From NCBI RefSeq assembly GCF_004210375.1, contig NC_134831.1, positions 98,889,522 through 98,953,521 of the forward strand: DNA of 64,000 nt, in the 5' to 3' direction. The position numbers were made by a program, and so were the translations under genes. Shown piece after piece: positions 20,486 through 64,000 of this stretch (position 1 is the first letter of the stretch; each line of letters opens with the position of its first letter). Under the pieces are notes generated by a model. That model worked only from the letters and a program-made list of their open reading frames with translations, was not told the DNA's origin and searched no databases. The stretch comes from Tachypleus tridentatus. Taxonomy: Eukaryota.

Positions 20486-20499
20486 TTATAATGGAAAAT

Positions 20500-39556: not shown

Positions 39557-39743
39557 CTTAACTGATTCTTTAAAAAGAAAAAGAGAAAAATACTATTTAT
39601 AAAAACTCTTGTACAGCTACAAGAGCCATTAAGTTTATATCAGATACATCCAAAAAACAGTAAGTATTTTTAGATATAATCTTGTTTAACTCTAGAATTC
39701 AATTTAGTGATATTTGGCTAAAAAGTTAAGTGAAGAAAAATAC

Positions 39744-39970: not shown

Positions 39971-39973
39971 TAC

Positions 39974-40123: not shown

Positions 40124-40729
40124 CTATGATAATAAAAAAAACATGCTGCACAAAATTTTACACTAAAAATATTCAAACAAAATATTTCAATTACAAATGT
40201 TTTGATACTTTTACAATAAAATAATGTAACTAGGAAATTTACCACATACATATATGTAAACTATTTCTGTAATTTATGTGGAAGGAATGAAAATTATATT
40301 AACTTGTTCAATATGCATGATGTACATGCTGTAACGTATTTACTCTTATGCATTTATTTTAAAGTTTGCTTCAGTTATAAATATATATTCAGAAATGCAT
40401 GTAACTTATATTGTTAAATGTGTATTGTGAAAGTCCTGCCTGTTCTCTAAATTTGTAGAAGATTGTAGTGCATAAAAATCAACAGCGTACTAGGTGTTTA
40501 TGTAATACTAGTTATTGACAGTATTGTTACCAAGTGAACTTCAGAAAATGTCTTTTACAATATTTATAAATCAATGTGGCAAGAGACAAAATAATATTGT
40601 TGGTCTGCCACAATCAGTACACTATAAGCCTTGGGAGCTATAACTGTGATAAACACTTATCAATCAGAAAACTACAGATACTTAACCAGGAACGTTTATA
40701 GAGTTTGAATGTTACAAAACAAAATACAG

Positions 40730-40900
40730 ATCTAAATAATCTGAGGACAAACTATAAAACTAATATTATTTTATTTACAAAAAACAAACATAAAACAGTG
40801 TATTATTGGGCATAAGATATGAAGTGATACATGGATCCTAAATTTGAAACATTTTAAAGACCTAAATTATAAATAAATCATAAAGAAATAATTATGTAAC
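40730..40900. repeat. Dispersed repeat copy. The partner copy lies at about 41800..41970 at roughly 85% identity.
   Basis: The string ..ctgaggacaaactataaaactaatattattttatttacaaaaaacaaacataaaacagtgtattattgggcataagatatgaagtgatac..aaattataaataaatcataaagaaata recurs at 41800..41970. Confidence 0.7.
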
Positions 40901-41334
40901 TCAAGAATTAACTTTGAATGTTAATATTTCTTTAAAAATATCACATACTTTCAATGGAAAAACTTGTGTGAGGAGCAAGAGATACCTTAGTTGTACTGAT
41001 ATCAACATTAAGTTATTCATTCATCGTGAATCGTGCATAAAATATTCAGTTCCAGACCAGATAATGTTGTTTGTAAAACTCTTGTATATAAGCCATTATT
41101 TGTAATAACTGTTATTATAAATTGTATTGTTGCTTGTATATTAAAATATATTTATGTTAAGAAAGAAAACAGCGTGTATCAATCTTACTGGCAAGCATCA
41201 TAAATTTGATAAATATTAACATTCAATTAACTTCTAAATTAAAATTAAAATTTCCAGCTATTGGAAATTGTAAAAATGTACATAACATAATAAATCAGAG
41301 ACTTGTCCTACGTAAATTATAATACATAACAACA

Positions 41335-41470
41335 TACACACTTCAATCAATATTCTTGGTATGTTGTTTTTTAATTGCTACAGCACGTATTGATAAATTA
41401 CCATTATAAAGCTAATTCACATACCAAGAATATTGATTGAAGTGAGTACGTTGTTACAGCAATTAAAAAA
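41335..41470. repeat. Nested inverted repeat / palindrome (cttcaatcaatattcttggtatg ... cataccaagaatattgattgaag, with the outer pair ttttttaattgctacagcacgta / tacgttgttacagcaattaaaaaa).
   Basis: Seen directly in the sequence. The arms are about 23 bp with a roughly 50-bp spacer. Confidence 0.7.
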
Positions 41471-42173
41471 AAATATATTTTTCAAACTTAAATAAACAAA
41501 CAATAAATTACAGAAATGGAATGTCACATAATTTTACAGGACATTAGATAAAACAAATGAATCACATCATAGAAGGATAATGTCAGATTAAACTATTGTT
41601 TCTTCATCATTACATAGTACAGTTAACAAATTAAGAAAAGATTATACTATCACTTAGCGAAGTAGCTAATTCCCTACTCATATATGCTGTATTTCATACA
41701 CCCTATTTTATTTCTGTAATATAAGAAACACTGTGTGCAGTTCACTCAAACTGGATTAATGTCACAAGTGGGCCCAGTTTCAGTCTCAATGATTAAACAC
41801 AAAATAACCTGAGAACAAACAATAAAACTTGTATTTTATTTACAAAAAAACAAACATAAAACAGTATATTACTGAGCATAACATATAAAGTGATACACTT
41901 ATTCTAAATTTGAAAAATTTTAAAGTCCTAAATTATAAATAAATCATAAAGAAATATTTATGTAACTCATGTCTGTAACTTAGCACCATGTATATTCCTT
42001 TAGAGATCAAACCATATAATCAAACATATACTTAAAATTTTGTGATATTTAAAACCTCACATTTAGAAATATTACAATCCACAAATTTATTTATAAAACA
42101 TTAATAATTTGCACAACAAAATTGTGTTTTATTCATGATGAAAGCATAAAATTTGCCAAAAAAAGTACACAAA

Positions 42174-42503
42174 GAGATCACTTTGTGGTAGATGTTGGTA
42201 CCAAGCAGTATTATCTTACTCAGATCACTTTGTGGTATATGTTGGTACCAAGCAGTATTATCTTACTCAGATCACTTTGTGGTAGATGTTGGTACCAAGC
42301 AGTATTATCTTACTCAGATCACTTTGTGGTAGATGTTGGTACCAAGCAGTATTATCTTACTCAGATCACTTTGTGGTATATGTTGGTACCAAGCAGTATT
42401 ATCTTACTCAGATCACTTTGTGGTAGATGTTGGTACCAAGCAGTATTATCTTACTCAGATCACTTTGTGGTAGATGTTGGTACCATGCAGTATTATCTTA
42501 CTC
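42174..42503. repeat. Tandem repeat, 47-bp unit (cagatcactttgtggtagatgttggtaccaagcagtattatcttact), about 7 copies.
   Basis: Period 47 bp. ORF 42122..42535 is an artefact. Confidence 0.95.
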
Positions 42504-42861
42504 TGTATTTGAAACACCCTCTTTCATCTCTGTAATAAATGAAAAACTGTCAAAATAAATATTCAAGCAAAAACTGTCAATAGACTTGAGCTGATTGATG
42601 CCATTTAAGTGATCAAATTAAGATTGATTGGCTATGATTTCAAAAATGTCAAAATTTGCTTTTTGTGTGGTTAAGAATTACCTATTAAATTCTTTTTCTA
42701 TATTTTTTGTCTAATACTGTGTTGTTTTTTTGTATAGCTATAGTTTAGATTATAAGTTACTATTCCATTTGCACTTATTTCATAAAATGCCAAATGCATA
42801 TGTACAAACCAAACTAGTAATTATAACAGTGATGTTGAAAAAACCCACTTGTAGAGAAAAA

Positions 42862-42982
42862 TATATATGTAAAAACGGCTCGTTTAGGTTGAGAAAATTT
42901 TTTACGTAGAGGAGCTAACAACGTTTCGACCTTCCATGTAAAAACTTTTCTCAACCCAAACGAGCTGTTTTTACATATATAT
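42862..42982. mobile_element. Small hairpin (foldback) element with a 37-bp inverted repeat (2 mismatches) around a 47-bp loop.
   Basis: The left arm is atatatatgtaaaaacggctcgtttaggttgagaaaa. The right arm reverse complement is atatatatgtaaaaacagctcgtttgggttgagaaaa. Confidence 0.6.
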
Positions 42983-43129
42983 TTAAACTGGTAATTAATC
43001 ACATAAAACCGAGTGATCAGAATTGAAGTTATAAACAAAAGATATAAAATTATCTATACAAGTGTGAGGGATAAGTTATCAAATTCGATAGAAGAGTGGC
43101 TGGACTGATGGAAGCAAAATGTTGTCACA

Positions 43130-44100
43130 AACTGAGTTCATTCAAACTGGATTAATGTCACAAGTGGTGTACCTGAGGTCCCAGTCTCAGAACCTTTTTT
43201 ATTTTCATCAGTGACACAAATGAAGGAATGATCAATAAGTTATTTAACTTTACAGATGATATTAAGGACTTGGATGTTGCTAGCTGTGAAGAGGATGCTT
43301 CTGATCTATAAAAATATTTAGATCATTTAGTAAATAAATGTCAGATGGGTTTTAATTATACTAAATGCAAGATACATGTGGGTAATCACAATTCAAATTA
43401 TAAGCATAATTTGGATAGAAATAAACTAAACAGTGTTATGAAGGAAAGTGTTCTTGGTGTAATAACCACGATTAATCAGTATCTGAAACCATCCAAGCAA
43501 TGTCCTGTTGCTTGTGGTGGAGCAAATAGTATTTTGGGTTGTATGTACAGAAATACTGAATACAAGTCTAAATATGTTATAATTTCATTGTTTAGATCAC
43601 TGGTTAGCCCATATTTGAAATACTGAGTTCAGTTTTGGGCTCCTTACCTAAGGAAAAACATTGAATTGTTGGAAAGGGTTCAGAGAAAGGTAACTAGGAT
43701 GGTGTCTGGGAGGGAGTGTTGTTATGACTTTCAAATTATTTTCTCTTAATTAAAGAAGAGTTTGGACAGTTTGATTGAAATGTTTGAAATTATAGAGAGA
43801 ACTGATAGTGTTGATGTATTATCTATTTTTATATTTAACAATGAAAATAGTAGTTAAAGGGGACACAAATATAACTTTTGGCAGGGTAAGAATCATTATC
43901 AGCTAGACAGTTTCATTTTTCTAACAGGTTGGGTGCCCTTTGGAATGAATTGTCTTCATACATTATAGAGGTAATAAATTTAAGTAAGCTTAAATTAAGT
44001 ATATGAATGATAAGGGTTGGCTTTAAGATTTTTAAAAAAATATTTTAGCTTAATTTAGAAGATGGAATAGTTGAGATGGAACAACAGGTCCCTATTGTCC
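43130..44100 (+). mobile_element. CR1-like LINE 3' fragment (RT C-terminal region and 3' end), plus strand.
   Basis: The translation reads ...INKLFNFTDDIKDLDV...LDHLVNKCQMGFNYTKCKIHVGNHNSNYKHNL...SLFRSLVSPYLKY*VQFWAPYLRKNIELLERVQRKVTRMVSG, about 80% similar to the minus-strand copy at 20560..21010. Confidence 0.75.
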
Positions 44101-44277
44101 TAAAATGTTATATTATAAGCTATCAAGATTCTCAGGTACACTGAGATTCAAGAATACTGCTATAATATAAGCAAAAACCATTATTCAGATAACAGTATAT
44201 AAATGCTACAAATGACTACTTTTCACAGTTATAGTACCCATATTGGCTAACCCGAATTGTGCCACAAAGTTTGTTAC

Positions 44278-44409
44278 CGGCAGGACAGTATCATCTGTAA
44301 AAGTTTCTTTGGCTCGTAGGATCAATCCTTCATTTTCTCCCAGAACACAGATGTCTTGAATACCATTTTCTAGTCTTTCTCCAGGCATAAGAAAGAAAGA
44401 TATTTCACC
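44278..44409 (-). CDS. MVP: MVP exon e. Encodes [44 protein letters not shown].
   Basis: Acceptor atcaatag|GGTGAA and donor CTGCCG|gtaaca. Matches human [41 protein letters not shown]... Confidence 0.85.
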
Positions 44410-44654
44410 CTATTGATAAAAAAAACAGCTACAAACATGTGCTTATAAAACATAATTCTTTACAAAATCAACAACGGTACGTGTGTAAGGAAAGATTCAG
44501 ATATTTTACTCATTTCATGACAAATTTATGATACAAAGAAAAATATATATTATTAAAACTCCACAGAGATTGTTGTTTGTGATGTTAAAAACTGTGTTTT
44601 ACCATCAGTTAAAGGAAACAACTGTAACAGTTCCATAAATTCTCATCAGTATTT

Positions 44655-46750
44655 CAATTTCTTATACAGTGGGCTTATGAAATAAGAGAGGCAGTTATAA
44701 TTAAAACATTCAACATACTTTAACCAATTTCTTATGCATACAGTGGGCTTATGAACTAAGAGACACAGTTATAATTAAAACATTCAACATACTTAACCAA
44801 TTTCTTATGCATACAGTGGGCTTATGAACTAAGAGACACAGTTATAATTAAAACATTCAACATACTTTAACCAATTTCTTATGCATACAGTGGGCTTATG
44901 AACTAAGAGACAGTTATATTAAAACATTCAACATACTTTAACCAATTTCTTATGCATACAGTGGGCTTATGAACTAAGAGACACAGTTATAATTAAAACA
45001 TTCAACATACTTAACCAGTTTCTTATGCATACAGTGGGCTTATGAAATAAGAGACACAGTTATAATTAAAACATTAAACATACTTTAACCAATTTCTTAT
45101 GCATACAGTGGGCTTATGAACTAAGAGACAGTTATATTAAAACATTCAACGTACTTTAACCAATTTCTTATGCATACAGTGGGCTTATGAACTAAGAGAC
45201 AGTTATAATTAAAACATTCAACATACTTTAACCAATTTCTTATACATACAGTGGGCTTATGAAATAAGAGACACAGTTATAATTAAAACATTCAACATAC
45301 TTAACCAATTTCTTATACATACAGTGGGCTTATGAAATAAGAGACACAGTTATAATTAAAACATTCAACATACTTAACCAATTTCTTATTCATACAGTGG
45401 GCTTATGAACTAAGAGACAGTTATATTAAAACATTCAACATACTTTAACCAATTTCTTATGCATACAGTGGGCTTATGAACTAAGAGACACAGTTATAAT
45501 TAAAACATTCAACATACTTAACCAGTTTCTTATGCATACAGTGGGCTTATGAACCAAGAGACACAGTTATAATTAAAACATTAAACATACTTTAACCAAT
45601 TTCTTATGCATACAGTGGGCTTATGAACTAAGAGACAGTTATATTAAAACATTCAACGTACTTTAACCAATTTCTTATGCATACAGTGGGCTTATGAACT
45701 AAGAGACAGTTATAATTAAAACATTCAACATACTTTAACCAATTTCTTATACATACAGTGGGCTTATGAAATAAGAGACACAGTTATAATTAAAACATTC
45801 AACATACTTAACCAATTTCTTATACATACAGTGGGCTTATGAAATAAGAGACACAGTTATAATTAAAACATTCAACATACTTAACCAATTTCTTATTCAT
45901 ACAGTGGGCTTATGAACTAAGAGACAGTTATATTAAAACATTCAACATACTTTAACCAATTTCTTATGCATACAGTGGGCTTATGAACTAAGAGACACAG
46001 TTATAATTAAAACATTCAACATACTTAACCAGTTTCTTATGCATACAGTGGGCTTATGAACCAAGAGACACAGTTATAATTAAAACATTAAACATACTTA
46101 ACCAATTTCTTATACATACAGTGGGCTTATGAAATAAGAGACACAGTTATAATTAAAACATTAAACATACTTTAACCAATTTCTTATGCATACAGTGGGC
46201 TTATGAACTAAGAGACAGTTATATTAAAACATTCAACATACTTTAACCAATTTCTTATGCATACAGTGGGCTTATGAACTAAGAGACACAGTTATAATTA
46301 AAACATTCAACATACTTAACCAATTTCTTATACATACAGTGGGCTTATGAAATAAGAGACACAGTTATAATTAAAACATTCAACATACTTAACCAATTTC
46401 TTATGCATACAGTGGGCTTATGAAATAAGAGACACAGTTATAATTAAAACATTCAACATACTTTAACCAATTTCTTATTCATACAGTGGGCTTATGAACT
46501 AAGAGACAGTTATATTAAAACATTCAACATACTTTAACCAATTTCTTATACATACAGTGGGCTTATGAAATAAGAGACACAGTTATAATTAAAACATTCA
46601 ACATACTTTAACCAATTTCTTATACATACAGTTGGCTTATGAACTAAGAGACACAGTTATAATTAAAACATTCAACATACTTTAACCAATTTCTTATACA
46701 TACAGTGGGCTTATGAAATAAGAGACAGTTATATTAAAACATTCAACATA
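44655..46750. repeat. Tandem minisatellite, 70 to 76-bp unit (ttaaccaatttcttatRcatacagtgggcttatgaaMtaagagacacagttataattaaaacattcaacatact), about 29 copies. It is contiguous with the 3' end of MVP exon d.
   Basis: On the minus strand each unit reads ...AAGAAATTGGTTAAAGTATGTTGAATG..., which is the last 15 nt of exon d plus its GTATGT donor. Confidence 0.95.
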
Positions 46751-46751
46751 C

Positions 46752-46988
46752 TTTAACCAATTTCTTTTGGCCTAGCTGAGGGGTCCCATCTTCATTAAGA
46801 GGATCAAGAATAACACAGTACTGACGCTTAGATAATGTTGTAATAGATACCACACCGACCACCTGTTCATACACACCCGGTATGTAAGTTTCTGTGTCAG
46901 TCATTTTGATCAACCACTCCTGTCCATTTCTTCTTTCGACTCCCAGCTCATCACAAAATGTACAAGTCGCCCTTACGTGTACTGCTTC
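46752..46988 (-). CDS. MVP: MVP exon d. Encodes [79 protein letters not shown].
   Basis: Acceptor tctgtttcag|GAAGCAG and donor GGTTAAA|gtatgt (phase 0). Matches human [79 protein letters not shown]. Confidence 0.9.
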
Positions 46989-47568
46989 CTGAAACAGACC
47001 CAAGTTTACTAATATAAGTTTGATATGTCAGCATGTGAAATGAATAAGCAACAACAACAACAAAAAACAGAAGTGAAAATGTTATACTTTGAAAGTCACG
47101 AAAAACAAATTTACACTTGTTATAAAAACAACAGTGTATGAAGTGAAAAATAATTCTCAGATGAATTTTGATGAATGGTAACAAGACCACCTGTGAGGTC
47201 AACAAAAGTACACACGTTTGTGTATAAAGTGCTTCATATAATCCAATGTTCAAATAGCTAAGGTTACTGGGAGTTCCACATCTCTTAATATTTGTTTTCA
47301 AAAACACTTAATAGGTTTACTCTGCTGACATATTATTTTTCAGAATTTTCAGATTTTAAACTTTCAAATACTGACACAGCTTTTACTTTATGATCAATGT
47401 GCATTATCTGTGTGCAGCAGGAAACAACTAAATAGTTTAAAAAGAAACATGTTATTTATGTGTTGGTTCCATGTTGAGTCTTACATGGTGATGACCGTAA
47501 CTAACCTGCTTTTCTCATAATCATGCATCGTAAAGTAAAATATAATTGGTGGGGAAAAAAAGAAAAAA

Positions 47569-48030
47569 GGTCAAACATTGTAAAAACAGCAAAATAAGCT
47601 AAAAACAAACATTAGTTTATATCAAAGGTCAAACACTGTGAAAACAGCAAAATAAGCTAAAAACAAACATGAGTTTATATCAAAGGTCAAACACTGTGAA
47701 AACAGCAAAATAAGCTAAAAACAAACATTAGTTTATATCAAAGGTCAAACACTATGAAAACAGCAAAATAAGCTAAAAACAAACATGAGTTTATATCAAA
47801 GGTCAAACACTATGAAAACAGCAAAATAAGCTAAAAACAAACATGAGTTTATATCAAAGGTCAAACACTGTGAAAACAGCACAATAAGCTAAAAACAAAC
47901 ATTAGTTTATATCAAAGGTCAAACACTGTGAAAACAGCACAATAAGCTAAAAACAAACATTAGTTTATATCAAAGGTCAAACACTGTGAAAACAGCAAAA
48001 TAAGCTAAAAACAAACATTAGTTTATATCA
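47569..48030. repeat. Tandem repeat, 59-bp unit (gtcaaacactgtgaaaacagcaaaataagctaaaaacaaacattagtttatatcaaag), about 8 copies.
   Basis: Period 58 to 59 bp. Confidence 0.95.
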
Positions 48031-48201
48031 AGGTTTAATAAATATTTATGTCAGTTAACAGTCTTTTCATTATGTGACATGATGGATCATAAAATTGCGG
48101 AATTATTATATATGCAGAAGTTTTCATATTGGTACTTAAAATACAGGAATGGAAATACATTTAGTGCTGCATGTCTTTTCCTTCCAAATCACAGTAGTTA
48201 C

Positions 48202-48428
48202 CTTTTCTGTCAAAACATATGCATTAACAATATCCACAATTTCTTCATAAGCTCCAGGTAGATAAGCACCTATCTTTCTGACAAGCCACTCCTCTCCACA
48301 CACCCTTATCTTTCCACCTCTGTCTCTTGTCTCTGTACAAGCTCGAAGTTTTAAAGCCTGATTCGGTTTGATTACAAAAGCTCTCACTGTTTCCACAACT
48401 TCAACCTCCTTACAAGGAATGTATGTCC
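48202..48428 (-). CDS. MVP: MVP exon c. Encodes (G)[75 protein letters not shown].
   Basis: Acceptor ..ttaacatag|GGACATAC and donor GAAAAG|gtaact. Matches human [76 protein letters not shown]. Confidence 0.9.
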
Positions 48429-48430
48429 CT

Positions 48431-49452
48431 ATGTTAAAAAATAAATATCAAACATCCATTGGTGATGTATGTTCCTATATAACAGAATAAATATCAAACA
48501 TCCATTGGTTGCTGTATAACACTATGTTACAGAATAAATATCAAACATCCATTGGTTGATGTATAACACTATGTTACAGAATAAATATAAACATCCATTG
48601 GTTGATGTATAATACTATGTTACAGAATAAATATCAAACCTCCATTGGTTAATTATGTTCCTATGTTACAGAATAAATATCAAACGTTCATTGGTTGCTG
48701 TATAACACTATGTTAGAAAATAAATATCAAACATTCATTGGTTGCTATATAACACTACGTTACAAAATAAATATCAAACCTCCATTGGTTGATTATGTTC
48801 TTATGTTACAGAATAAATATCAAACATTCATTGGTTGCTGTATAACACTATGTTACAAAATAAATATCAAACATCCATTGGTTGATGTATAACACTATGT
48901 TAGAAAATAAATATCAAACCTCCATTGGTCACTGTATAACACTATGTTACAGAATAAATATCAAACCTCCATTGGTTGCTGTATAACACTATGTTACAAA
49001 ATAAATATCAAACATCCATTGGTTGCTGTATAACACTATGTTACAAAATAAATATCAAACATTCATTGGTTGCTGTATAACACTATGTTACAGAATAAAT
49101 ATCAAATATTCATTGGTTGCTGTATAACACTATGTTACAAAATAAATATCAAACCTCCATTGGTTGCTGTATAACACTATGTTAGAAAATAAATATAAAA
49201 CCTCCACTGGTTGCTGTATAATACTATGTTACAGAATAAATATCAAACATTCATTGGTTGCTGTATAACACTATGTTACAAAATAAATATCAAACCTCCA
49301 TTGGTTGATGTATAACACTATGTTACAGAATAAATATCAAACCTCCACTGGTTGCTGTATAACACTATGTTACAAAATAAACATCAAACATCCATTGATT
49401 GCTGTATAACACTATGTTACAGAATAAATATCAAACCTCCACTAGTTGCTGA
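48431..49452. repeat. Tandem minisatellite, 47-bp unit (tatgttacagaataaatatcaaacatccattggttgctgtataacac), about 21 copies. It starts immediately upstream (in transcript sense) of the MVP exon c acceptor.
   Basis: On the minus strand the units contain gatatttattctgtaacatag, which copies the polypyrimidine tract and AG acceptor. The second unit also copies the first 10 nt of the exon (GAACATACAT against GGACATACAT). Confidence 0.95.
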
Positions 49453-49573
49453 AACAGTTCTCAATGACAATATGATTACCTTTCAAATAAGATAATAAAC
49501 AGCCAGAGATTCTTAAGTTGTAAGTTGCAATTTCAAGATGGAAAGAGTGAATTTTTTTAGATAACATTTAAAT

Positions 49574-49860
49574 ACAGTGGAACCCCTCTAAGCGGCCACC
49601 CCTCAGATTCGGTCACCCCTTGAAAGTGGTCATTCAATCACAGTCCCTTTTTTTGTTTACATAATCCCTAATTATGTACAGTGGAACCTCTCTAAGCGGC
49701 CACCCCTCAGATTCGGTCACCCCTTGAAAGTGGTCATTCAATCACAGTCCCTTTTTTTGTTTACATAATCCCTAATTATGTACAGTGGAACCCCTCTAAT
49801 CAGGCCAGTTTGTCTCAGTCCCGAAGGTGGCTACTTTAGAGGGGTTCCACTGTAATAGCA
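49574..49860. repeat. 104-bp unit repeated about 2.7 times (acagtggaacccctctaagcggccacccctcagattcggtcaccccttgaaagtggtcattcaatcacagtccctttttttgtttacataatccctaattatgt). It ends in a perfect 17-bp inverted repeat hairpin at 49783..49852.
   Basis: Units start at 49574, 49678 and 49782. The inverted repeat is cagtggaacccctctaa ... ttagaggggttccactg. Confidence 0.85.
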
Positions 49861-51229
49861 AATTTCTGCTGTATCAGATACATTAAATTTGAAAAGATAA
49901 AGATGAAAATAAAAAGAATTTTTTTCATACATGGCTATCTTATAGTAACATATTCTTGTCATTTGTTTCTTTCATAGAGGGAGCTGGTGGTATAAGTGAT
50001 GATAAAACTTATATTTAATAATTTGGGCCTTGAACACCTAAAAAGTTCCAAAAAATTTGACATCATTTATGTGGAATACTAGACTCATATGTGCAAACTA
50101 ATAAACATTTCTTGTGTAAACCTAACAGTGAGTGGTTAATAAAGCTAAAACAAGTTTACTTTTAAATTAAGGATTTTAAACCAGAAAAGAGATAAAACTT
50201 TTAACTACACTTTGACAATCCTAGTGACTGATGATAATATCCATACAGTATTATCTACCATAAAACCTGGATAACTTGAGTCATATTAATATAGATATAT
50301 GCAAAAGTAATAAACTGTGTAATTAAAACAAATGACAACTTTAAATTTTTTTACAAAATATTTTAGCAGCATGAACTGAACATTTATTATACCTGGAAAC
50401 CCTGTCTTAGACAAGTTATAATACAAAGGAATATATTTTGTAATTCTTTAGTTTTGCTTTGGCCAGACCTTATCTAAAAATAAAATCTAATTTTCAATAT
50501 ATTTTCTATTATACAGAAGAGTTCTTATTTTAAAAAAAAGGCATTTAATACATTATAACACTGATTCAAAATTTTTTTACCCCATGAACTGGTAAAATAT
50601 TTGTCAAAAACTCGGGGCCATTGAAAGAATCCTTTTAATTTTGCTTCCTAATTTATTTTCTTCTGAGAAGTTTTGAAGTATAAGTTATCATGATCAACAA
50701 TGTTATGATAAACTACAAAGGGCAAACACAAATTATAAAGTTAACCCTAAATTAATTTTTTTATAAACATTTTTATTAATTTTCTCCTGTCTTTTTCACC
50801 CTGAACATTTCTACAGAACAGAACAACACATACACAGGTCAGTGGTAAGGAACCACTACAATAACAGACTTTTATTTAAAAAGTATATTTATTAATTACC
50901 AATTTATCCAAAATGGACCTGCATTAAAAATATAAAAAAATTAGTTTATAAAATACATTAAATATTTCACGCATTTTAGAGCAAATTTTATTGGAATATA
51001 TTTAAATAACAGCTGCATCTTAAACAAGAAATTCCACAATGTATACCTCTAATAAGTACTCCTGCACCACCTTATCAATATTCAATGTTAATCTACAACA
51101 GATTAGTTATTCTTTACAGTTAATCTTGTAATTAACAAAAACAAAACCACTACACCTTTGATACATCTAATGAGTAATTTGTTCTATCAGTCAGTTGATA
51201 TAAAAAAATAAAATTAAAACTATTACAAC

Positions 51230-51350
51230 CTGGGCCTTCAAACAGCCACTCATCACCAGCAACTTTCTTCTCGTATCTATCCTTGAAATCCCTGAGAGCT
51301 CGAAGCCTAAGTGCTGTGTTTGAAGGTACAACTTTTAAAGGTGTAATATC
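51230..51350 (-). CDS. MVP: MVP exon b. Encodes [40 protein letters not shown](G).
   Basis: Acceptor tttttttag|GATATT and donor CCAG|gttgta. The phase continues into exon c. Matches human DITPLQVVLPNTALHLKAL...[13 protein letters not shown]. Confidence 0.85.
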
Positions 51351-53186
51351 CTAAAAAAATGTTTGAAATGTTCATAAAATATGCACAGATTATATATTTA
51401 AATTTTTTTATGCTTGAACACTCAGATAAAACCACTAACATCTCAGTCTTGATTAGTATTAGTCTAATACAAGGATACAGTGATAAATTATTTAGAGTGC
51501 TATAACACTCATATTATACATCTTCAATAGACTGCTTTTAAATAAATTATGAGCAGTGTTTTTAGGTTCATTCACCAAGTTTGACCACTCTTCACAAACT
51601 TAAAAAATAATTATTTTTCTGCCTATTAATGTGGAGTTTTGTCAATTTAAAAAATGCAATATTTTTCCTTTTTTTAAGTCATACTTTTTTTAAAAAACAT
51701 TGTAAACAAATTATCATTGAAGATTAAAATCATAAATATAGATTACCTATTTTATTCAAAAACAAAAGCAAACTCCAAACACCATTAGAGTTTTTTGTCA
51801 AAACATGAACAATAACACTGCACAACAATTGTTTTGAAAAGTTTTGCTTCCTGAAAAGTGTTTGCTGATTGTAACAGGTACCTGGTGGGTATGCACAAAT
51901 ATAGTTTTGGTTTTACTTCATCACATAGCAACTCTGAGTAACAGACAATTAACTGTTTATCGGCAATAACGTATTTAATTGCATTTATGTTTCTAATATG
52001 CTATTAAGTTTAACATAATTAAAAGTGTTTTGCTCCTGATTTTCATTTGTATTCAATGTCCGGTGCATCACGTTGCAGTGTCCAACAGTAGTCAGCAAGC
52101 ATTGACGGATTCCAGTTGCCCTGATATCGTTTCTCCATTGTAGCAATGTCCTTGTAAAACTGAAGTTTTTGATGAAATGGTACATGATGGGCAAATTTGT
52201 TCAAGAAGCAAAAACTTTGTTGTGCAGTGTAACCATTGTTTCTATAATATCTCCTGGCTAATCAACTTAAAAAAAATTCTGAAAGAACACAATGAATCTA
52301 GAAATATTAATTAGCATAAGACACAAGAAGCAAACTAAATAAATTAAAATTCCATCAAAAAACTATTAAACACCAATAAAGAATCTTGGAATTATGGTGC
52401 TTTCTTTTGACAGAAGAGTAAGAAATACAAAGCCAACCTCAAGCTAGGTTTAAAATAAAATAATACTATGTTTTTGAGATTTCACCATTTGCACTTTAAA
52501 TGAGAGAGATAAAATATCTATATCATGTTACAAAAAATACATTTTTTAAACTATATCATTTAACAATGACTAGATTTTTGGCAAAACACTATATCTGTTG
52601 CATCATTGAAATACCAATACAAAATGAAGAAAAGGAGGTAGGACATCAATCTTTTCTTGTCCCAATCATTGCTACATCTTTCTAATATATTGTGGTCCTG
52701 TTGATGTGACTAGTGGTCCTATTTGTTAATATTCATTTCAACAAAAAATATTGAGATAAATGAAACACTTTTTTCATTTGAAATAAAAATCATATAATGT
52801 CAGCTTGCTCTGAATCGTACTGGGGACCTAAATAGTTGTGTGATAAAATTTCCTTACATTAGGTACTAATAAAGAAACTATTACAGCTGGTATGAACTGC
52901 TAACATGTGCATCACAGAATTAACCATGCTTAACTGAGAATCGCAAATAAGAGCAACTATAACTACTGCATAAATATTTCTGCATAATGAAGTCATAATT
53001 CTTACAACTTTTCTTTTTACTTGGATATACAATAAGAATATTTACATTAAAGAATTTTTTATGTTTGAAAAATACTTATATTTTTAATTCAATTCTTTGT
53101 AGTTTGGTTTGACACCAGAATTTCAAAATCCCAATTTTCTTGATCACATCCAAACAGAGTTTTATATCAATACATTAAATGCTTAC

Positions 53187-53382
53187 CACATGTAGACGCT
53201 CTCCAGGATAAATGGGAAATGGTTCTTGCTCCAATCTAATTTCTAAATCTGCATGCTGTAACTTGACCTGACCAGCAGCATCATACTGGATTGAATTATC
53301 ACGATCATGTACCACAGGGTTCTGGATGACACAGTAATGATGAGGAGGAACAATCACCATTCTCTCAGGACCAAAAATGACC
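53187..53382 (-). CDS. MVP: MVP exon a (earliest MVP exon found). Encodes [65 protein letters not shown]. The 5' boundary is uncertain; it could instead be the ATG at 53390.
   Basis: The translation aligns with the vertebrate MVP N-terminal repeat region (human ...RVLFAPMRMVTVPPRHYC...[25 protein letters not shown]) from recalled homology. Donor GTAAGC follows ...CATGTG. The putative acceptor ..GAAAG|G is weak. Confidence 0.8.
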
Positions 53383-54239
53383 CTTTCCATAGAGGTATTA
53401 GAGTACATTCAGTTAAACACATATCTTCTTTTGTTTAAAATAAAATAAACGAGTAGCTTACACATGCAGTAATAAACTTGAAAGTATACAGACAGACACC
53501 ACAGTTGATGTAATACTTATGTTGCATAATACTCTTAAAGTTTGGATAGTTCACCTATCCTTGAACTGTGATTGCTGATCTCATGAATAAACACTGATAA
53601 GCTGGAAACCAAGTTAGATACGTGAATTTGTTCCAATTGTTATTACTTTAACAACAAATAATAACCATGAAAGACAAAGAAGAAAATGGTAAACTTAATA
53701 ATTAACTCAGGATATCTCAACCAACAAGTAATGTTTTTATGGTAGTAGGCCAAGGAATGAGCAGTTTGGGTGATTACTTCTTGGAGGTATCACACTGTTG
53801 GAAAATCTGGAATTTGCTGTATCCAAATATGCAATACATGTGATATTAACATGTTTCAGTTGTGAGTCAAAGATACACAGTTTGTCAGAGTGGTTGTACC
53901 ACCTTACCAGCCATAGTTCCACACTATAAAATGTCTTTTTTTTTCAGTCTCATATCAAAGTAAGTGACCTGCCTTCACTGTCTCTTTGAGGTTGGAAATC
54001 TTGTCCTTCAGATCTGATTAAAGGCTATTACTGTCCTTGTCAGTACCAAACCAATTTTTGAGTAACACTCTAGCATCTTTGGGTTTAATGAATGGATTTA
54101 CCTCAACAAGGGCTGTCAAAAGGTCCATGCTTCAACTTAAATGTATCAAAACCTTGCATATGCAAGTAACCAAGGGAATAATGGCTATTGATGATTACGA
54201 GGTCTGTTCAAAAAATATGTGGACTGTTTGAATTGCACT

Positions 54240-55100
54240 GCTCCAGTTGGTTCCAGGGGAATCCACTTGGTGTTGCTAGGTTCACACAGATCAGCTGATT
54301 ACGACGCCATTTCCTGATTGCAGATATCTTCATTTGTGTATTAGCTACGCGGTTTTAAGTGAAGTGCGATTTTTTCGTTTGGCGGATTTCAGAATGAATG
54401 ACCTGAAGGAGCAACGACTTGCTGTGAAATTTTGTGTTAAACTTGGAAAAGCTGCGACTGAAACTTTTGCTCTGCTTAACACGGCTTACGGTGATGTTGC
54501 CATGAAGCGTACGGCATGTTTCAAGTGGCATGAACGTTTTAAGGATGGTCGACAGTCCATTGAAGATGATGAGCATCCTGGACGTCCTTCCACGTCAACT
54601 GACGACCCACACGTCGACAAAATCAACACACTGGTGCAGGCAAATCGACGTCTGACTGTCAGGGAACTTGCTGAAGAGTGTGGGATATCAGTTGGATCTT
54701 GTTACGAGATTGTGACCAAGAAATTGAAGATGCACCGCGGTGCTGCGAAATTTGTGCCTCAGAACTCGTGAGTTTTTGGCCAAACAATCACTGTTCTTCC
54801 CCACCCACCCCTACTCACCTGACCTTGCTCCTTGCGATTTTTTTCTTGTTCCCCAAACTCAAACGACCCTTGAAAGAAAGAAGACTTGAGACGATTCCCA
54901 AGATTAAGGCAAATGCGATGAAAGAGCTGGAGGACATTACAAAAGAAGCGTACCAGGACTGTTTCAACAAGTGGAAACACCGTTGGGATAAGTGTGTGCG
55001 TTGGGGAGGAGAGTACTTTGAAGGGGTCCCAGACCTGTAACTTCTAAATAAAGTACATTTTGTTTTATGACGTCAGTCCGCGTATTTTTTTAACAGCCCT
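54240..55100 (+). mobile_element. Internally deleted mariner-family (Tc1/mariner) transposon. The transposase N-terminus (HTH, roughly 54394..54771) is fused out of frame to the C-terminus (roughly 54795..55040). The catalytic DDD core is missing. The ends are approximate.
   Basis: The N-terminal translation reads MNDLKEQRLAVKFCVKLGKAATETFALLNTAYGDVAMKRTACFKWHERFKDGRQSIEDDEHPGRPSTSTDDPHVDKINTLVQANRRLTVRELAEECGISVGSCYEIVTKKLKMHRGAAKFVPQ. The C-terminal frame reads ..PPTPTHLTLLLAIFFLFPKLKRPLKERRLETIPKIKANAMKELEDITKEAYQDCFNKWKHRWDKCVRWGGEYFEG, which fits the mariner motifs HPPYSPDLAPCDFFLFPKLK...FQ.W..RW.KCI...G.YFEGD. Confidence 0.85.
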
Positions 55101-55244
55101 CATACATGCCAAAAAGTAGCAAGGTTTGAATCACAGTCAGCAAGGTTTGGAGGTGTTTGATTTTTTTTTTAATTTTTACAATTTGGCAAAGAATAAACTA
55201 TGCTAGGAGTCTAACTGGTAAAAACTACAGAACAACACCAGAAA

Positions 55245-55470
55245 ACATCATTAAAATATACAAGACATAAATTAGACCAATAATAGACTATGCAGCTCCT
55301 ACATGGATCAATATCAGTGTAAAACAATTACAAACCAAACTCCAAACATTACAGAATACAATAATTACATCAGCATACAGAGTACCTAAAACCACTTCCT
55401 CAAACTTCATGTACAATTACTCAAATACACAAACAATACCAGATAGACTTCTACATAATACAATATAGTA
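55245..55470 (+). mobile_element. Non-LTR retrotransposon fragment (RT C-terminal segment).
   Basis: The translation IKIYKT*IRPIIDYAAPTWININVKQLQTKLQTLQNTIITSAYRVPKTTS matches the conserved post-RT block of LINE ORF2 (..YKTLIRPILEYAS.VW......LE.VQ..ALR...). Confidence 0.6.
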
Positions 55471-55825
55471 TTCTGATAAAAATTAGCAAAAAAATGATTT
55501 GCTATATGCAAACTAGACAGATATTGCATCTATGATGAACAGAGACCTAAACACCATTAAACTTGTACATCAGATATTTAAGATAAAATCAAATTTAAAA
55601 CAATAATAATAATAAAATAGTGCTAAAATACAACAGGCCACCTATGTTCTAGACTTATTAAAAAAATAAAATAAAATAAATAAATAAAAAACTTATGAAA
55701 GAACAATATAAATGGACATTGCCCTGAAAAGGGCCACATTTAAAGTTGTGCTATTACTTCAGCCATTTTGTGTTTACTCTAAATGTATTAATCAGGCCAT
55801 TCCAACTAAGAAATGGAAGGAGGAA

Positions 55826-58800
55826 GAGATCTATTGTACTTAACCCTCCTTGGTATACAAATATATATACCAAATACATAGAGAGAGAGGTCTAGTGTAC
55901 CTAACCCTCCTGGGTATACAAATGTATATACCAAATACAGAGAGAGAGAGGTCTAGTGTACCTGAGCCTCCTGGGTATACAAATATATATACCAAATATC
56001 TAGAGAGAGAGAGAGAGGTCTAGTGTACCTGATCCTCCTGGGTATACAAATATATATACTAAATACCTAGAGAGAGAGAGGTCTAGTGTACCTAACCCTC
56101 CTGGGTATACAAATATATATACCAAATACATAAAGAGAGAGAGAGGTCTAGTTTACCTGACCCTCCTGGGTATACAAACATATATACCCAAATACCTAGA
56201 GAGAGAGAGAGGTCTAGTGTACCTCACCCTCCTGGGTATACAAATATATATACCAAAATACCTAGAGAGAGAGAGGTCTAGTGTACCTGACACTCCTGGG
56301 TATACAAATATATATACCAGATACATAGAGAGAGAGGGGTCCAGTGTACCTGACCCTCCTGGGTATACAAATATATATACCAGATACATAGAGAGTGAAG
56401 TCCAATGTACCTGACCCTCCTGGGTATACAAATATATATACCCAAATACCTACAGAGAGAGAGACATCTAGTGTACCTGACCCTCATGGGTATACAAATA
56501 TATATACCAAAATACCTAGAGAGAGAGAGGTCTAGGATACCTGACCCTTCTGGGTATACAAATATATATACCAAAACACCTAGAGAGAGAGGGGTCTAGT
56601 GTACCTGACCCTCCTGGGTACACAAATATATATACCAAATACCTAGAGAAAGAGAGAGGGTCTAGTGTACTGACCCTCCTGGGTATACAAATATATATAC
56701 CAAATACCTAGAGAGAGAGTCTAGTGTACCTGACCCTCCTGGGTATACAAATATATATACCAAATACCTAGAGAGAGAGAGTCTAGTGTACCTGACCCTC
56801 CTGGGTATACAAATATATATACCAAAATACCTAGAGAGAGAGAGAAGTCTAGTGTACCTGACCCTCCTGGGTATACAAATATATATACCAAAATACCTAG
56901 AGAGAGAGGTCTAGTGTACCTGACCCTCCTGGGTACACAAATATATATACCAAATACCTAGAGAGAGAGGAGGTCTAGTGTACCTGACCCCCTCCTGGGT
57001 ATACAAATATATATACCAAAACACCTAGAGAGAGAGAGAGAGGTCTAGTGTACCTGACCCTCCTGGGTATACAAATATATATACCAAATACCTAGAGAGA
57101 GAGGTCTAGTGTACCTGACCCTCCTGGGTATACAAATATATATACCAAATACCTAAGAGAGAGAGAGGTCTAGTGTACCTGACCCTCCTGGGTATACAAA
57201 TATATATACCAAATACCTAGAGAGAGAGAGGTCTAGTGTACCTGACCCTCCTGGGTATACAAATATATATACCAAATACCTAGAGAGAGAGGTCTAGTGT
57301 ACCTGACCCTCCTGGGTATACAAATATATATACCAAATACCTAGAGAGAGAGAGAGGTCTAGTGTACCTGACCCTCCTGGGTATACAAATATATATACCC
57401 AAATACCTAGAGAGAGAGAGAGTCTAGTGTACCTGACCCTCCTGGGTATACAAATATATATACCAAATACCTAGAGAGAGAGAGGTCTAGTGTACCTGAC
57501 CCTCCTGGGTATACAAATATATATACCAAATACCTAGAGAGAGAGAGAGGTCTAGTGTACCTGACCCTCCTGGGTATACAAATATATATACCAAATACCT
57601 AGAGAGAGAGAGGTCTAGTGTACCTGACCCTCCTGGGTATACAAATATATATACCAAATACCTAGAGAGAGAGAGGTCTAGTGTACCTGACCCTCCTGGG
57701 TATACAAATATATATACCAAATACCTAGAGAGAGAGAGAGAGAGTCTAGTGTACCTGACCCTCCTGGGTATACAAATATATATACCAAATACCTAGAGAG
57801 AGAGAGGTCTAGTGTACCTGACCCTCCTGGGTATACAAATATATATACCAAATACCTAGAGAGAGAGAGGTCTAGTGTACCTGACCCTCCTGGGTATACA
57901 AATATATATACCAAATACCTAGAGAGAGAGAGTCTAGTGTACCTGACCCTCCTGGGTATACAAATATATATACCAAATACCTAGAGAGAGAGAGAGGTCT
58001 AGTGTACCTGACCCTCCTGGGTATACAAATATATATACCAAATACCTAGAGAGAGAGAGAGTCTAGTGTACCTGACCCTCCTGGGTATACAAATATATAT
58101 ACCAAATACCTAGAGAGAGAGAGAGTCTAGTGTACCTGACCCTCCTGGGTATACAAATATATATACCAAATACCTAGAGAGAGAGAGAGGTCTAGTGTAC
58201 CTGACCCTCCTGGGTATACAAATATATATACCAAATACCTAGAGAGAGAGAGAGTCTAGTGTACCTGACCCTCCTGGGTATACAAATATATATACCAAAA
58301 TACCTAGAGAGAGAGAGGTCTAGTGTACCTGACCCTCCTGGGTATACAAATATATATACCAAATACCTAGAGAGAGAGGGTCTAGTGTACCTGACCCTCC
58401 TGGGTATACAAATATATATACCAAATACCTAGAGAGAGAGAGGTCTAGTGTACCTGACCCTCCTGGGTATACAAATATATATACCAAATACCTAGAGAGA
58501 GAGAGGTCTAGTGTACCTGACCCTCCTGGGTATACAAATATATATACCAAATACCTAGAGAGAGAGAGAGGTCTAGTGTACCTGACCCTCCTGGGTATAC
58601 AAATATATATACCAAATACCTAGAGAGAGAGAGGTCTAGTGTACCTGACCCTCCTGGGTATACAAATATATATACCATAAAACCTAGAGAGAGAGAGAGA
58701 GTCTAGTGTACCTGACCCTCCTGGGTATACAAATATATATACCAAAATACCTAGAGAGAGAGAGAGGTCTAGTGTACCTGACCCTCCTGGGTATACAAAT

Positions 58801-61800
58801 ATATATACCAAAATACCGAGAGAGAGAGAGAGGTCTAGTGTACCTGACCCTCCTGGGTATACAAATATATATACCAAAATACCTAGAGAGAGAGAGAGTC
58901 TAGTGTACCTGACCCTCCTGGGTATACAAATATATATACCAAATACCTAGAGAGAGAGAGGTCTAGTGTACCTGACCCTCCTGGGTATACAAATATATAT
59001 ACCAAATACCTAGAGAGTGAGAGGTCTAGTGTACCTGAGCCTCCTGGGTATACAAATATATATACCCAAATACCTAGAGAGAGAGAGGTCTAGTGTACCT
59101 GACCCTCCTGGGTATACAAATATATATACCAAATACCTAGAGAGAGAGAGAGGTCTAGTGTACCTGACCCTCCTGGGTATACAAATATATATACCAAATA
59201 CCTAGAGAGAGAGAGAGGTCTAGTGTACCTGACCCTCCTGGGTATACAAATATATATACCAAATACCTAGAGAGAGAGAGAGGTCTAGTGTACCTGACTC
59301 TCCTGAGTATACAAATATATATACCAAATACCTAGAGAGAGAGAGAGGTCTAGTGTACCTGACCCTCATGGGTATACAAATATATATACCAAATACATAG
59401 AGAGAGAGAAGTCTAGTGTACCTGACCCTCCTGGGTATACAAATATATATACCAAAAACCTAGAGAGAGAGAGTCTAGTGTACCCAACCCTCCTGGGTAT
59501 ACAAATATATATACCAAAATACCTAGAGAGAGAGGTCTAGTGTACCTGACCCTCCTGGGTATACAAATATATATACCAAATACCTAGAGAGAGAGAGGTC
59601 AAGTGTAGCTGACCCTCCTGGGTATACAAATATATATACCAAATACCTAGAGAGAGAGAGTCTAGTGTACCTGACCCTCCTGGGTATACAAATATATATA
59701 CCAAATACCTAGAGAGAGAGGTCAAGTGTACCTGACCCTCCTGGGTATACAAATATATATACCAAATACCTAGAGAGAGAGAGAGGTCTAGTGTACCTGA
59801 CCCTCCTGGGTATACAAATATATATACCAAATACCTAGAGAGAGAGAGAGAGAGGTCTAGTGTACCTGACTCTCCTGAGTATACAAATATATATACCAAA
59901 TACCTAGAGAGAGAGAGAGAGTCTAGTGTACCTGACCCTCCTGGGTATACAAATATATATACCAAATACCTAGAGAGAGAGAGGTCTAGTGTACCTGACC
60001 CTCCTGGGTATACAAATATATATACCAAAAACCTAGAGAGAGAGAGAGGTCTAGTGTACCTGACCCTCCTGGGTATACAAATATATATACCAAATACCTA
60101 GAGAGAGAGAGAGGTCTAGTGTACCTGACCCTCCTGGGTATACAAATATATATACCAAAATACCTAGAGAGAGAGAGGTCTAGTGTACCCGACCCTCCTG
60201 GGTATACAAATATATATACCAAATACCTAGAGAGAGAGAGGTCTAGTGTACCTGACCCTCCTGGGTATACAAATATATATACCAAATACCTAGAGAGAGA
60301 GAGAGTCTAGTGTACCTGACCCTCCTGGGTATACAAATAAATATACCAAAATACCTAGAGAGAGAGAGGTCTAGTGTACCTGACCCTCCTGGGTATACAA
60401 ATATATATATCCAAATACCTAGAGAGAGAGAGAGGTCTAGTGTACCTAACCCTCCTGGGTAGACAAATATATATACCAAAATACCTAGAGAGAGAGAGAG
60501 AGGTCTGGTGTACCTGACCCTCCTGGGTATACAAATATATATACCAAATACCTAGAGAGAGAGGTCTAGTGTACCTGACCCTCCTGGGTATACAAATATA
60601 TATACCAAATACCTAGACAGAGAGAGGTCTAGTGTACCTGACCCTCCTGGGTATACAAATATATATACCAAATACCTAGAGAGAGAGAGGTCTAGTGTAC
60701 CTGACCCTCCTGGGTATACAAATATATATACCAAATACCTAGAGAGAGAGATCAAGTGTACCTGACCCTCCTGGGTATACAAATATATATACCAAATACC
60801 TAGAGAGAGAGAGAGGTCTAGTGTACCTGACCCTCCTGGGTATACAAATATATATACCAAAAACCTAGAGAGAGAGAGAGTCTAGTGTACCCACCCTCCT
60901 GGGTATACAAATATATATACCAAAATACCGATAGAGAGAGAGAGGTCTAGTGTACCCGACCCTCCTGGGTATACAAATATATATACCAAAATACCGATAG
61001 AGAGAGAGAGGTCTAGTGTACCCGACCCTCCTGGGTATACAAATATATATACCAAATACCTAGAGAGAGAGGCCAAGTGTAGCTGACCCTCCTGGGTATA
61101 CAAATATATATACCCAAATACCTAGAGAGAGAGAGAGGTCTAGTGTACCTGACCCTCCTGGGTATACAAATATATATACCAAATACCTAGAGAGAGAGGT
61201 CTAGTGTACCTGACCCTCCTGGGTATACAAATATATATACCAAATACCTAGAGAGAGAGAGAGGTCTAGTGTACCTGACCCTCCTGGGTATACAAATATA
61301 TATACCAAATACCTAGAGAGAGAGAGAGGTCTAGTGTACCTGACCCTCCTGGGTATACAAATATATATACCAAATACCTAGAGAGAGAGAGAGGTCTAGT
61401 GTACCTGACCCTCCTGGGTATACAAATATATATACCAAATACCTAGAGAGAGAGAGGTCTAGTGTACCTGACCCTCCTGGGTATACAAATATATATACCA
61501 AATACCTAGAGAGAGAGAGAGGTCTAGTGTACCTGACCCTCCTGGGTATACAAATATATATACCAAATACCTAGAGAGAGAGAGAGTCTAGTGTACCTGA
61601 CCCTCCTGGGTATACAAATATATATACCAAAAACCTAGAGAGAGAGAGAGGTCTAGTGTACCTGACCCTCCTGGGTATACAAATATATATACCAAAATAC
61701 CAATAGAGAGAGAGAGGTCTAGTGTACCTGACCCTCCTGGGTATACAAATATATATACCAAAATACCTAGAGAGAGAGAGAGTCTAGTGTACCTGACCCT

Positions 61801-64000
61801 CCTGGGTATACAAATATATATACCAAAATACCGAGAGAGAGAGAGAGGTCTAGTGTACCTGACCCTCCTGGGTATACAAATATATATACCAAATACCTAG
61901 AGAGAGAGGTCTAGTGTACCTGACCCTCCTGGGTATACAAATATATATACCAAATACCTAGAGAGAGAGAGGTCTAGTGTACCTGACCCTCCTGGGTATA
62001 CAAATATATATACCAAATACCTAGAGAGAGAGAGGTCTAGTGTACCTGACCCTCCTGGGTATACAAATATATATACCAAATACCTAGAGAGAGAGAGGTC
62101 TAGTGTACCTGACCCTCCTGGGTATACAAATATATATACCAAATACCTAGAGAGAGAGAGGTCTAGTGTACCTGACCCTCCTGGGTATACAAATATATAT
62201 ACCAAATACCTAGAGAGAGAGAGGTCTAGTGTACCTGACCCTCCTGGGTATACAAATATATATACCAAATACCTAGAGAGAGAGAGGTCTAGTGTACCTG
62301 ACCCTCCTGGGTATACAAATATATATACCAAATACCTAGAGAGAGAGAGGGTCTAGTGTACCTGACCCTCCTGGGTATACAAATATATATACCAAAATAC
62401 CTAGAGAGAGAGAGAGTCTAGTGTACCTGACCCTCCTGGGTATACAAATATATATACCAAATACCTAGAGAGAGAGGTCTAGTGTACCTGACCCTCCTGG
62501 GTATACAAATATATATACCAAAATACCTAGAGAGAGAGAGGTCTAGTGTACCTGACCCTCCTGGGTATACAAATATATATACCAAATACCTAGAGAGAGA
62601 GGTCTAGTGTACCTGACCCTCCTGGGTATACAAATATATATACCAAATACCTAGAGAGAGAGAGTCTAGTGTACCTGACCCTCCTGGGTATACAAATATA
62701 TATACCAAATACCTAGAGAGAGAGAGAGGTCTAGTGTACCTGACCCTCCTGGGTATACAAATATATATACCAAATACCTAGAGAGAGAGAGGTCTAGTGT
62801 ACCTGACCCTCCTGGGTATACAAATATATATACCAAATACCTAGAGAGAGAGAGAGTCTAGTGTACCTGACCCTCCTGGGTATACAAATATATATACCAA
62901 AAACCTAGAGAGAGAGAGAGAGAGGGTCTAGTGTACCTGACCCTCCTGGGTATACAAATATATATACCAAAATACCGAGAGAGAGAGAGGTCTAGTGTAC
63001 CTGACCCTCCTGGGTATACAAATATATATACCAAATACCTAGAGAGAGAGAGGTCTAGTGTACCTGACCCTCCTGGGTATACAAATATATATACCAAATA
63101 CCTAGAGAGAGAGAGGTCTAGTGTACCTGACCCTCCTGGGTATACAAATATATATACCAAATACCTAGAGAGAGAGGTCAAGTGTAGCTGACCCTCCTTG
63201 GTATACATATATATATACCAAATACCTAGAGAGAGAGAGGTCTAGTGTACCTGACCCTCCTGGGTATACAAATATATATACCAAATACCTAGAGAGAGAG
63301 AGGAGAGAGGTCTAGTGTACCTGACCCTCCTGGGTATACAAATATATATACCAAATACCTAGAGAGAGAGAGAGGTCTAGTGTACCCGACCCTCCTGGGT
63401 ATACAAATATATATACCAAATACCTAGAGAGAGAGAGAGTCTAGTGTACCTGACCCTCCTGGGTATACAAATATATATACCAAATACCTAGAGAGAGAGA
63501 GAGAGGTCTAGTGTACCCGACCCTCCTGGGTATACAAATATATATACCAAAATACCAATAGAGAGAGAGAGGTCTAGTGTACCCGACCCTCCTGGGTATA
63601 CAAATATATATACCAAAATACCGATAGAGAGAGAGAGGTCTAGTGTACCCGACCCTCCTGGGTATACAAATATATATACCAAAATACCGATAGAGAGAGA
63701 GAGGTCTAGTGTACCTGACCCTCCTGGGTATACAAATATATATACCAAATACCTAGAGAGAGAGAGTCTAGTGTACCTGACCCTCCTGGGTATACAAATA
63801 TATATACCAAATACCTAGAGAGAGAGAGGTCTAGTGTACCTGACCCTCCTGGGTATACAAATATATATACCAAATACCTAGAGAGAGAGAGGTCTAGTGT
63901 ACCTGACCCTCCTGGGTATACAAATATATATACCAAATACCTAGAGAGAGAGAGGTCTAGTGTACCTGACCCTCCTGGGTATACAAATATATATATACCA
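55826..64000. repeat. Satellite array, about 63-bp unit (ggtctagtgtacctgaccctcctgggtatacaaatatatataccaaatacctagagagagaga), about 130 copies. It extends beyond the window end.
   Basis: The period of 61 to 66 bp varies with the embedded (GA)n tract. Each unit contains the near-palindrome ggtatacaaatatatatacc. All ORFs 56153..63936 are artefacts. Confidence 0.97.

Follow-up and report, generated by a model that had tools for sequence, protein, structure and literature searches.

A 64,000-nucleotide stretch of contig NC_134831.1 from Tachypleus tridentatus (hereafter, the window) ends in a large tandem array of a 63-bp unit, located 5′ to the first recognizable MVP exon. The array is best described as a large conventional minisatellite that most likely resides in an MVP intron, was born and homogenized locally and displays no evidence of function. 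We assign this explanation a probability of roughly two-thirds. The unit has no copy elsewhere in the window and the neighboring arrays are unrelated to it and to one another; therefore, the local and independent birth of each array is the default explanation.

Organization of the 63-bp array

The array spans positions 55825..64000 and contains approximately 128 units, as defined by Tandem Repeats Finder (TRF), anchor spacing, a 20-mer scan and the repeat register at the window end. TRF reports a single array at 55825..63995 with a period of 63, 127.7 copies, 94% matches, 4% indels and a score of 13939. Successive copies of a 27-nt anchor, 128 in total, lie 60–70 bp apart, most often 63 bp. 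In a scan of the window, the 20-mer GGTATACAAATATATATACC occurs in 116 exact copies and in 128 copies when up to two mismatches are allowed, all on the + strand and all within the array, whereas its expectation in dinucleotide shuffles is 0.00. These counts agree with the original prediction of ~130 highly similar consecutive units. The units are arranged head to tail in one direction throughout, and the repeat register is kept to the last bases of the window. The array thus runs beyond position 64000, as had also been predicted, and forms a single locus of at least 8.2 kb within the window. A minisatellite consists of head-to-tail units of ~10–100 bp, and the 63-bp period repeated in 127.7 copies falls within this definition. 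Such arrays typically measure between 0.5 kb and tens of kb at one locus, against the minimum of 8.2 kb seen here.

The 127 complete units represent 62 sequence variants. The commonest variant is 63 bp long, accounts for 26 of the 127 units and is represented by the consensus unit CCTCCTGGGTATACAAATATATATACCAAATACCTAGAGAGAGAGAGGTCTAGTGTACCTGAC at 62051..62113 on the + strand; CTGGGTATACAAATATATATACC is a k-mer of the 63-bp unit. Each unit was initially described as containing (GA)4-9. A variable GA tract is indeed present, but it ranges from 3 to 9 dinucleotides, with a mode of 6 (55 units have 6 dinucleotides, 38 have 7 and 21 have 5). The (GA)n tract of the + strand reads as (TC)n in the sense of MVP. 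The purine tracts are 6–20 nt long with a mode of 13, mostly fall between 11 and 15 nt and reach at least 15 nt in 39 of the 127 units. Unit length correlates with purine-tract length (r=0.83). A second slippage-prone site is provided by an A3/A4 run, and the remainder of the unit outside the variable tracts has a constant length of 47 nt in 102 units. CpG is absent from the 63-bp consensus unit (observed/expected 0.04).

The proximal edge of the array, comprising the first ~20 units (55825..57110), is eroded. When the GA tract is set aside, divergence from the consensus amounts to 4.2% of sites in the first 20 units and to ~1.7% in the interior. The mean inter-unit distance is flat over lags 1–100, which indicates that the array contains no higher-order repeat; in TRF, a row with a period of 128 scores the same as that with a period of 63. 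Identical units are adjacent to each other 17 times, in comparison to 8 times expected by permutation (p=0.0006), and this excess points to recent local duplications. The left boundary of the array is sharp, and no relic units are found in the 250 bp to its left. The flanking sequence is a unique A+T-rich spacer of 784 bp (55041..55824), which ends in the purine-rich sequence GGAAGGAGGAAGAG abutting the first unit. The edge erosion, the homogeneity and the variable GA tract are hallmarks of a young array whose growth and homogenization proceed by slippage and unequal exchange.

Location of the array relative to the MVP gene

MVP is encoded on the minus strand, and its exons extend from 53384 down to 16220 with canonical splice sites. 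The exons were located using a human MVP sequence that served only as a tblastn probe. The alignments run from 53405..53190 (aa 35–106) down to 16324..16220 (aa 817–851). The most upstream MVP coding exon in the window (53190..53384, minus strand) was identified by tblastn, a Pfam Vault_2 match (E=5e-24), its splice context and the corresponding spider exon boundary. The exon starts with (R)VIFGPERMVIVPPHHYC and is bordered by the acceptor ...ctctatggaaAG|G and the donor CAT|gtggtaagc. An in-frame TGA is located just upstream, and the exon therefore begins at the acceptor ...ggaaAG|G at ~53384. All 13 MVP acceptors and all inspected donors are canonical. A distance of 2.4 kb separates the exon at 53384 from the near end of the array, and the minus-strand orientation of this exon places the array on its 5′ side, consistent with the original prediction.

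The same prediction linked the array to MVP provided that exon 1 does not lie between 53383 and 55825. No N-terminal coding exon was found in 53384..55825 or elsewhere in the window; the N-terminal peptide IPPYHY[IL]HVLD... is absent from the window according to both a regular expression and a permissive tblastn search with human and spider probes. The MVP gene of the spider Stegodyphus dumicola has the same exon boundary before VIFGP (...ENEH|VIFGP) as the window gene. In the spider, the IPPYHY sequence is encoded by a single 147-nt exon, which is positioned 11.1 kb upstream of the VIFGP exon (same tblastn search, E=5e-30). Because the window lacks the N-terminal exon that the spider gene carries 11.1 kb upstream, the array is likelier to be intronic than to be part of the promoter. 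Thus, of the two locations that were first proposed, the first intron is favored by the spider gene layout, and a promoter-proximal position is less likely. Judged from the sequence and this comparison, the array would most likely be located inside the MVP intron between the IPPYHY exon, which would lie beyond 64000, and the exon at 53384..53190. In the simplest reading, the array would fill most of this intron, which would then exceed 10.6 kb.

The MVP protein of the window is 73% identical to that of Stegodyphus in the C-terminal half and 76–80% identical to that of Tachypleus in part of the N-terminal half. In neighbor-joining trees, it groups with the chelicerate proteins of Stegodyphus and Tachypleus. 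The spider locus (S. dumicola JAADJH010003391.1, 10001..87892) encodes the N-terminal 420 aa of an MVP-like gene over 78 kb. A 7-nt likeness (AGGGTCA) between the array unit and the exon-2 acceptor region falls under the BLAST reporting threshold and was judged to be due to chance.

Neighboring minisatellites

The 63-bp array is accompanied by ~20 further minisatellites that TRF detected in positions 1..55800. These minisatellites have units of 25–73 bp, up to 50 copies, lengths of up to 3 kb and 89–100% matches, and most of them are located in MVP introns. Tandem repeats constitute 39% of the window, and 30% when the 63-bp array is left out. In contrast, the spider MVP locus contains only 2.5% tandem repeat, and the richness of the window is therefore lineage- or region-specific. 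The minisatellite units of the window are mutually unrelated, and no core motif common to them was found beyond the shuffle expectation. Common flanks were not observed among the window arrays, and neither terminal inverted repeats nor target-site duplications were observed at the 17 arrays for which both flanks are visible. The 63-bp unit itself is absent from the other 55.8 kb of the window. The array had been labeled a satellite, a status that the window does not establish, as the unit is confined there to one array, itself one of ~20 unrelated local minisatellites.

Folding, coding and splice-like properties of the unit

Each unit contains a near-palindrome, GGTATA-CAAATATA-TATACC, as exemplified at 62058..62077 on the + strand, with 6-bp A+T-rich arms and an 8-nt spacer. 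Hairpin or cruciform potential had been proposed for this element, but the predicted DNA fold of the palindrome has a free energy of only -1.7 kcal/mol (z=-0.47) and is equaled by 60 of 200 shuffles. The whole-unit DNA fold is similarly unremarkable (z=-0.6 and -0.26 for the respective strands). Given the short A+T-rich arms and the shuffle-level fold, the cruciform potential was rejected as weak. RNA folds of three units yield z=-3.4 in the sense direction and z=-5.6 in the antisense direction, although the shuffle control is unfair here in that it destroys the repetition. The three-unit folds are better because pairing occurs between units.

The 63-nt period corresponds to 21 codons, but a coding reading was rejected on the grounds that the frame is lost in most units and that no Pfam match was obtained. 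Only 52 of the 127 units have a length that is a multiple of 3. The longest open reading frame (ORF) of the array encodes 163 aa, and no Pfam family scored above the cut-off for a representative array ORF of 144 aa. In the whole window, no Rfam match reached the gathering score, and no tRNA or tmRNA was predicted. The array is non-coding and has no match to an RNA family.

Read in the direction of MVP, the unit is CTCTCTCTCTCTAG|GTATTTGG...GGGTCAG|GTACAC and resembles splice sites at two positions. An acceptor-like (CT)n-AG|GTAT motif is present in 101 units, with 11–14 pyrimidines in the 14 upstream positions. By comparison, the 13 real MVP acceptors have a median of 10 pyrimidines in 14 positions, and just 1.8% of the AGs across the gene are preceded by 12 or more. 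A donor-like CAG|GTAC motif is present in 108 units. If the array is intronic, the MVP pre-mRNA would hold ~100 decoy acceptors. The number of these motifs is no evidence of selection because all copies descend from a single ancestral motif.

Origin of the array and alternative explanations

In the mechanism that we propose for a locally born minisatellite, a unique segment of ~63 bp would have been duplicated, possibly between purine-rich microhomologies. The array would have grown and become homogenized via replication slippage and unequal sister-chromatid or allelic exchange, while its edge would have escaped homogenization and its internal (GA)n tract would mutate faster by dinucleotide slippage. 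If intronic, the array would enter the pre-mRNA as (CU)n-rich sequence and be lost when the intron is spliced out. The 63-bp array would then be the largest product of a process that fills the MVP introns with ~20 independent minisatellites. Several points weigh against this explanation. The census of unit copies covers the 64-kb window only, and transposon features were examined on the left flank only. Neither the N-terminal exon nor the distal array end falls within the window, and the intronic position is accordingly inferred; the gene copy may instead be 5′-truncated, or a non-coding first exon may be located nearby. The possible origin from microhomologies draws on a single purine-rich flank, and neutrality is a default assumption.

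The array could alternatively be one locus of a genome-wide satellite family that was seeded here, for example a pericentromeric or subtelomeric family with euchromatic outposts comparable to TCAST of Tribolium or 1.688 of Drosophila. We consider this unlikely. The array is very homogeneous, measures at least 8.2 kb, continues at the window end and is nearly three times as long as any other array of the window, and euchromatic, intron-enriched satellite copies are known in beetles (PMC5844308, PMC3411249). However, solitary or short copies of the unit are not seen elsewhere in the window, and the neighboring arrays, all unrelated and likewise without copies elsewhere in the window, make local birth the default. 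The absence of a higher-order repeat also argues against a satellite, in which such an organization is frequent but not obligatory, and no telomeric repeats are found near the array. No exact match to the unit was obtained in 241 million JGI metagenome records and the unit sequence was not found in the full-text literature, although both are weak tests. A transposon-borne origin, in which the array would represent the internal tandem repeats of a transposable element (Helitron/Helentron, miniature inverted-repeat transposable element or similar) inserted upstream of the exon, appears quite improbable. Transposon-borne satellites are common in invertebrates, and transposon remnants are present both nearby (a mariner-like element at 54334..55040) and elsewhere in the window (fragments of long interspersed elements, LINEs, and tRNA-like copies of short interspersed elements, SINEs). 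Nevertheless, the 784-bp spacer is unique in the window and lacks inverted repeats pairing with the array edge, the sharp left boundary does not resemble a transposon terminus, and neither terminal inverted repeats nor target-site duplications occur at any of the 17 arrays that can be viewed on both sides.

A functional role is the least probable of these explanations and is regarded as very improbable. The array would in this case act as a cis- or RNA element, either through GAGA-type factor sites or H-DNA that affect MVP transcription, through ~100 (CU)n-AG|GU sites that bind a polypyrimidine-tract protein or serve as decoy splice sites, or as a source of antisense or small RNA. H-DNA is formed by homopurine-homopyrimidine mirror repeats, for which a length of ~15 bp or more is usually quoted. 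The array does offer purine tracts, mostly of 11–15 nt, but many of these may be short for stable H-DNA, with 39 of the 127 units reaching at least 15 nt. The splice-like motifs are numerous (101 units with (CT)n-AG|GTAT and 108 with CAG|GTAC in the MVP sense); still, the 128 copies of one ancestral sequence amount to a single observation, and no sign of selection is seen. The three-unit RNA folds (z=-3.4 sense and z=-5.6 antisense) are favorable only against shuffles, an unfair control for multi-unit folds, and the hairpin of a single unit scores no higher than shuffled sequence. The array is also absent from the homologous spider intron. A precedent for a functional effect is provided by human F7, in which the pseudo-splice sites of an intronic minisatellite affect splice-site choice (PMC1557585).

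Other features of the window

Two of the other minisatellites lie at or close to MVP splice junctions. A 47-bp × 22 minisatellite (48429..49451) extends to within 1–3 nt of the 3′ splice site of an MVP exon whose start is at ~48426. In the sense direction, its units end with the acceptor-like sequence ...TTGATATTTATTTTGTAACATAG, and the exon-proximal units begin with GAACATACAT, which copies the exon start GGACATACAT. In this array, the splice junction and ~10 nt of the exon seem to have been tandemly multiplied in a mirage-like manner. A 45-bp × 5 minisatellite (39742..39968) begins ~6 nt past the donor GT at the end of another MVP exon (...AAAACCGGAAGG|GTATGG). A mechanical ORF reads from this exon into the 45-bp repeat because the repeat starts right after the donor.

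An internally deleted mariner-like remnant (54334..55040, + strand) is located between the exon at 53384 and the array. Its N-terminus is of the Mos1-type HTH_48 family (Pfam E=1.4e-8). Its mariner-like C-terminus (...CFNKWKHRWDKCVRWGGEYFEG) was recognized by eye only, and the C-terminal ORF has no Pfam match. A LINE reverse-transcriptase fragment is present in two diverged copies (20956..21486 on the minus strand and 43062..43829) that exhibit 73% DNA identity. The copy at 20956..21486 matches Pfam RVT_1, and no close relatives of the fragment were found in the protein collection. A reverse-transcriptase-like motif was also noted, by eye only, in a short ORF at 13579..13794 (+ strand). A dispersed repeat of ~160–260 bp with 72–82% identity occurs at 801..980, 1476..1738, 7486..7738, 8444..8663, 20339..20491 and 38895..39095. 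Its translations contain ...AGSNP..., as a tRNA-like GGTTCGAATCC box predicts, and the repeat is probably a tRNA-derived SINE.

The G+C content in 2-kb bins is 22–41%, mostly 27–38%, and ~32% overall. The observed/expected ratio of CpG is 0.85–1.24 in 1..12000, beyond the 3′ end of MVP, and 0.14–0.26 (one bin 0.42) in 12001..52000. The drop in the MVP gene body is compatible with germline gene-body methylation.

Comparison with known systems and significance

The 63-bp array resembles the intronic variable number tandem repeats (VNTRs) of the human F7 type. Intron 7 of F7 contains a 37-bp minisatellite, each unit of which repeats a pseudo-5′ splice site (PMC1557585). The two arrays share head-to-tail units of tens of base pairs in an intron (most likely so for the window array), high homogeneity and a splice-like motif in the sense direction of each unit, and expansion and contraction by slippage and unequal exchange would be expected in the window array as well. 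However, the window array is far larger, with at least 128 units and more than 8 kb. Its motif is mainly acceptor-like, (CT)n-AG, and does not copy an authentic donor, and its visible end is located 2.4 kb from the exon.

Amphioxus introns harbor minisatellites with units of 10–72 bp, including “mirages” that consist of tandem duplications across exon–intron boundaries (PMC3087553, which cites work on Adh3). The minisatellite-crowded introns and the array edges excluded from homogenization find counterparts in the window, and the 47-bp array at 48429..49451 is similar to the mirages in its junction-repeating appearance. In a mirage, the repeat unit includes an authentic exon–intron boundary and the array abuts that exon. 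The 63-bp array is not of this form at its proximal end, which is 2.4 kb from 53384, but its units carry CAG|GTAC and AG|GTAT motifs, and its distal end lies beyond the window. The MVP of the window is closest to chelicerate proteins, and the G+C content is ~32%.

In Tribolium castaneum, satellite-like arrays occur in euchromatin in or near genes and are enriched in introns (PMC3411249, PMC5844308). As in the window, arthropod tandem repeats are thus found within or near genes, and regulatory functions have been suggested for them but not established for the majority of copies (PMC3411249, PMC5844308). TCAST families, however, are multi-copy, scattered for the most part as short arrays or single repeats, and have large heterochromatic blocks, whereas no second copy of the 63-bp unit is seen in the window, and the monomer is much shorter here.

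A broader interpretation, which we regard as improbable, is that the array represents the most extreme product of a lineage-specific and very frequent de novo birth of intronic minisatellites, including mirage-style junction duplications, and places ~100 (CU)n-AG|GU decoy acceptors in the first long MVP intron. If this were true, the splicing machinery must ignore the decoys or exploit them, for instance through sequestration of a polypyrimidine-tract protein or through recursive or cryptic splicing.

Taken alone, the 63-bp array is of limited importance: it could serve as a hypervariable marker and calls for caution in assembly and annotation at the 5′ end of MVP. Its context is more notable: two-fifths of a housekeeping-gene locus consist of ~20 unrelated young minisatellites, some of which touch or duplicate splice sites. 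To date, work on minisatellite birth and on the handling of repeated pseudo-sites has centered on amphioxus and on individual human genes. If the density observed here holds genome-wide, this genome would be a good system for studying minisatellite birth and the tolerance of splicing to repeated pseudo-sites.

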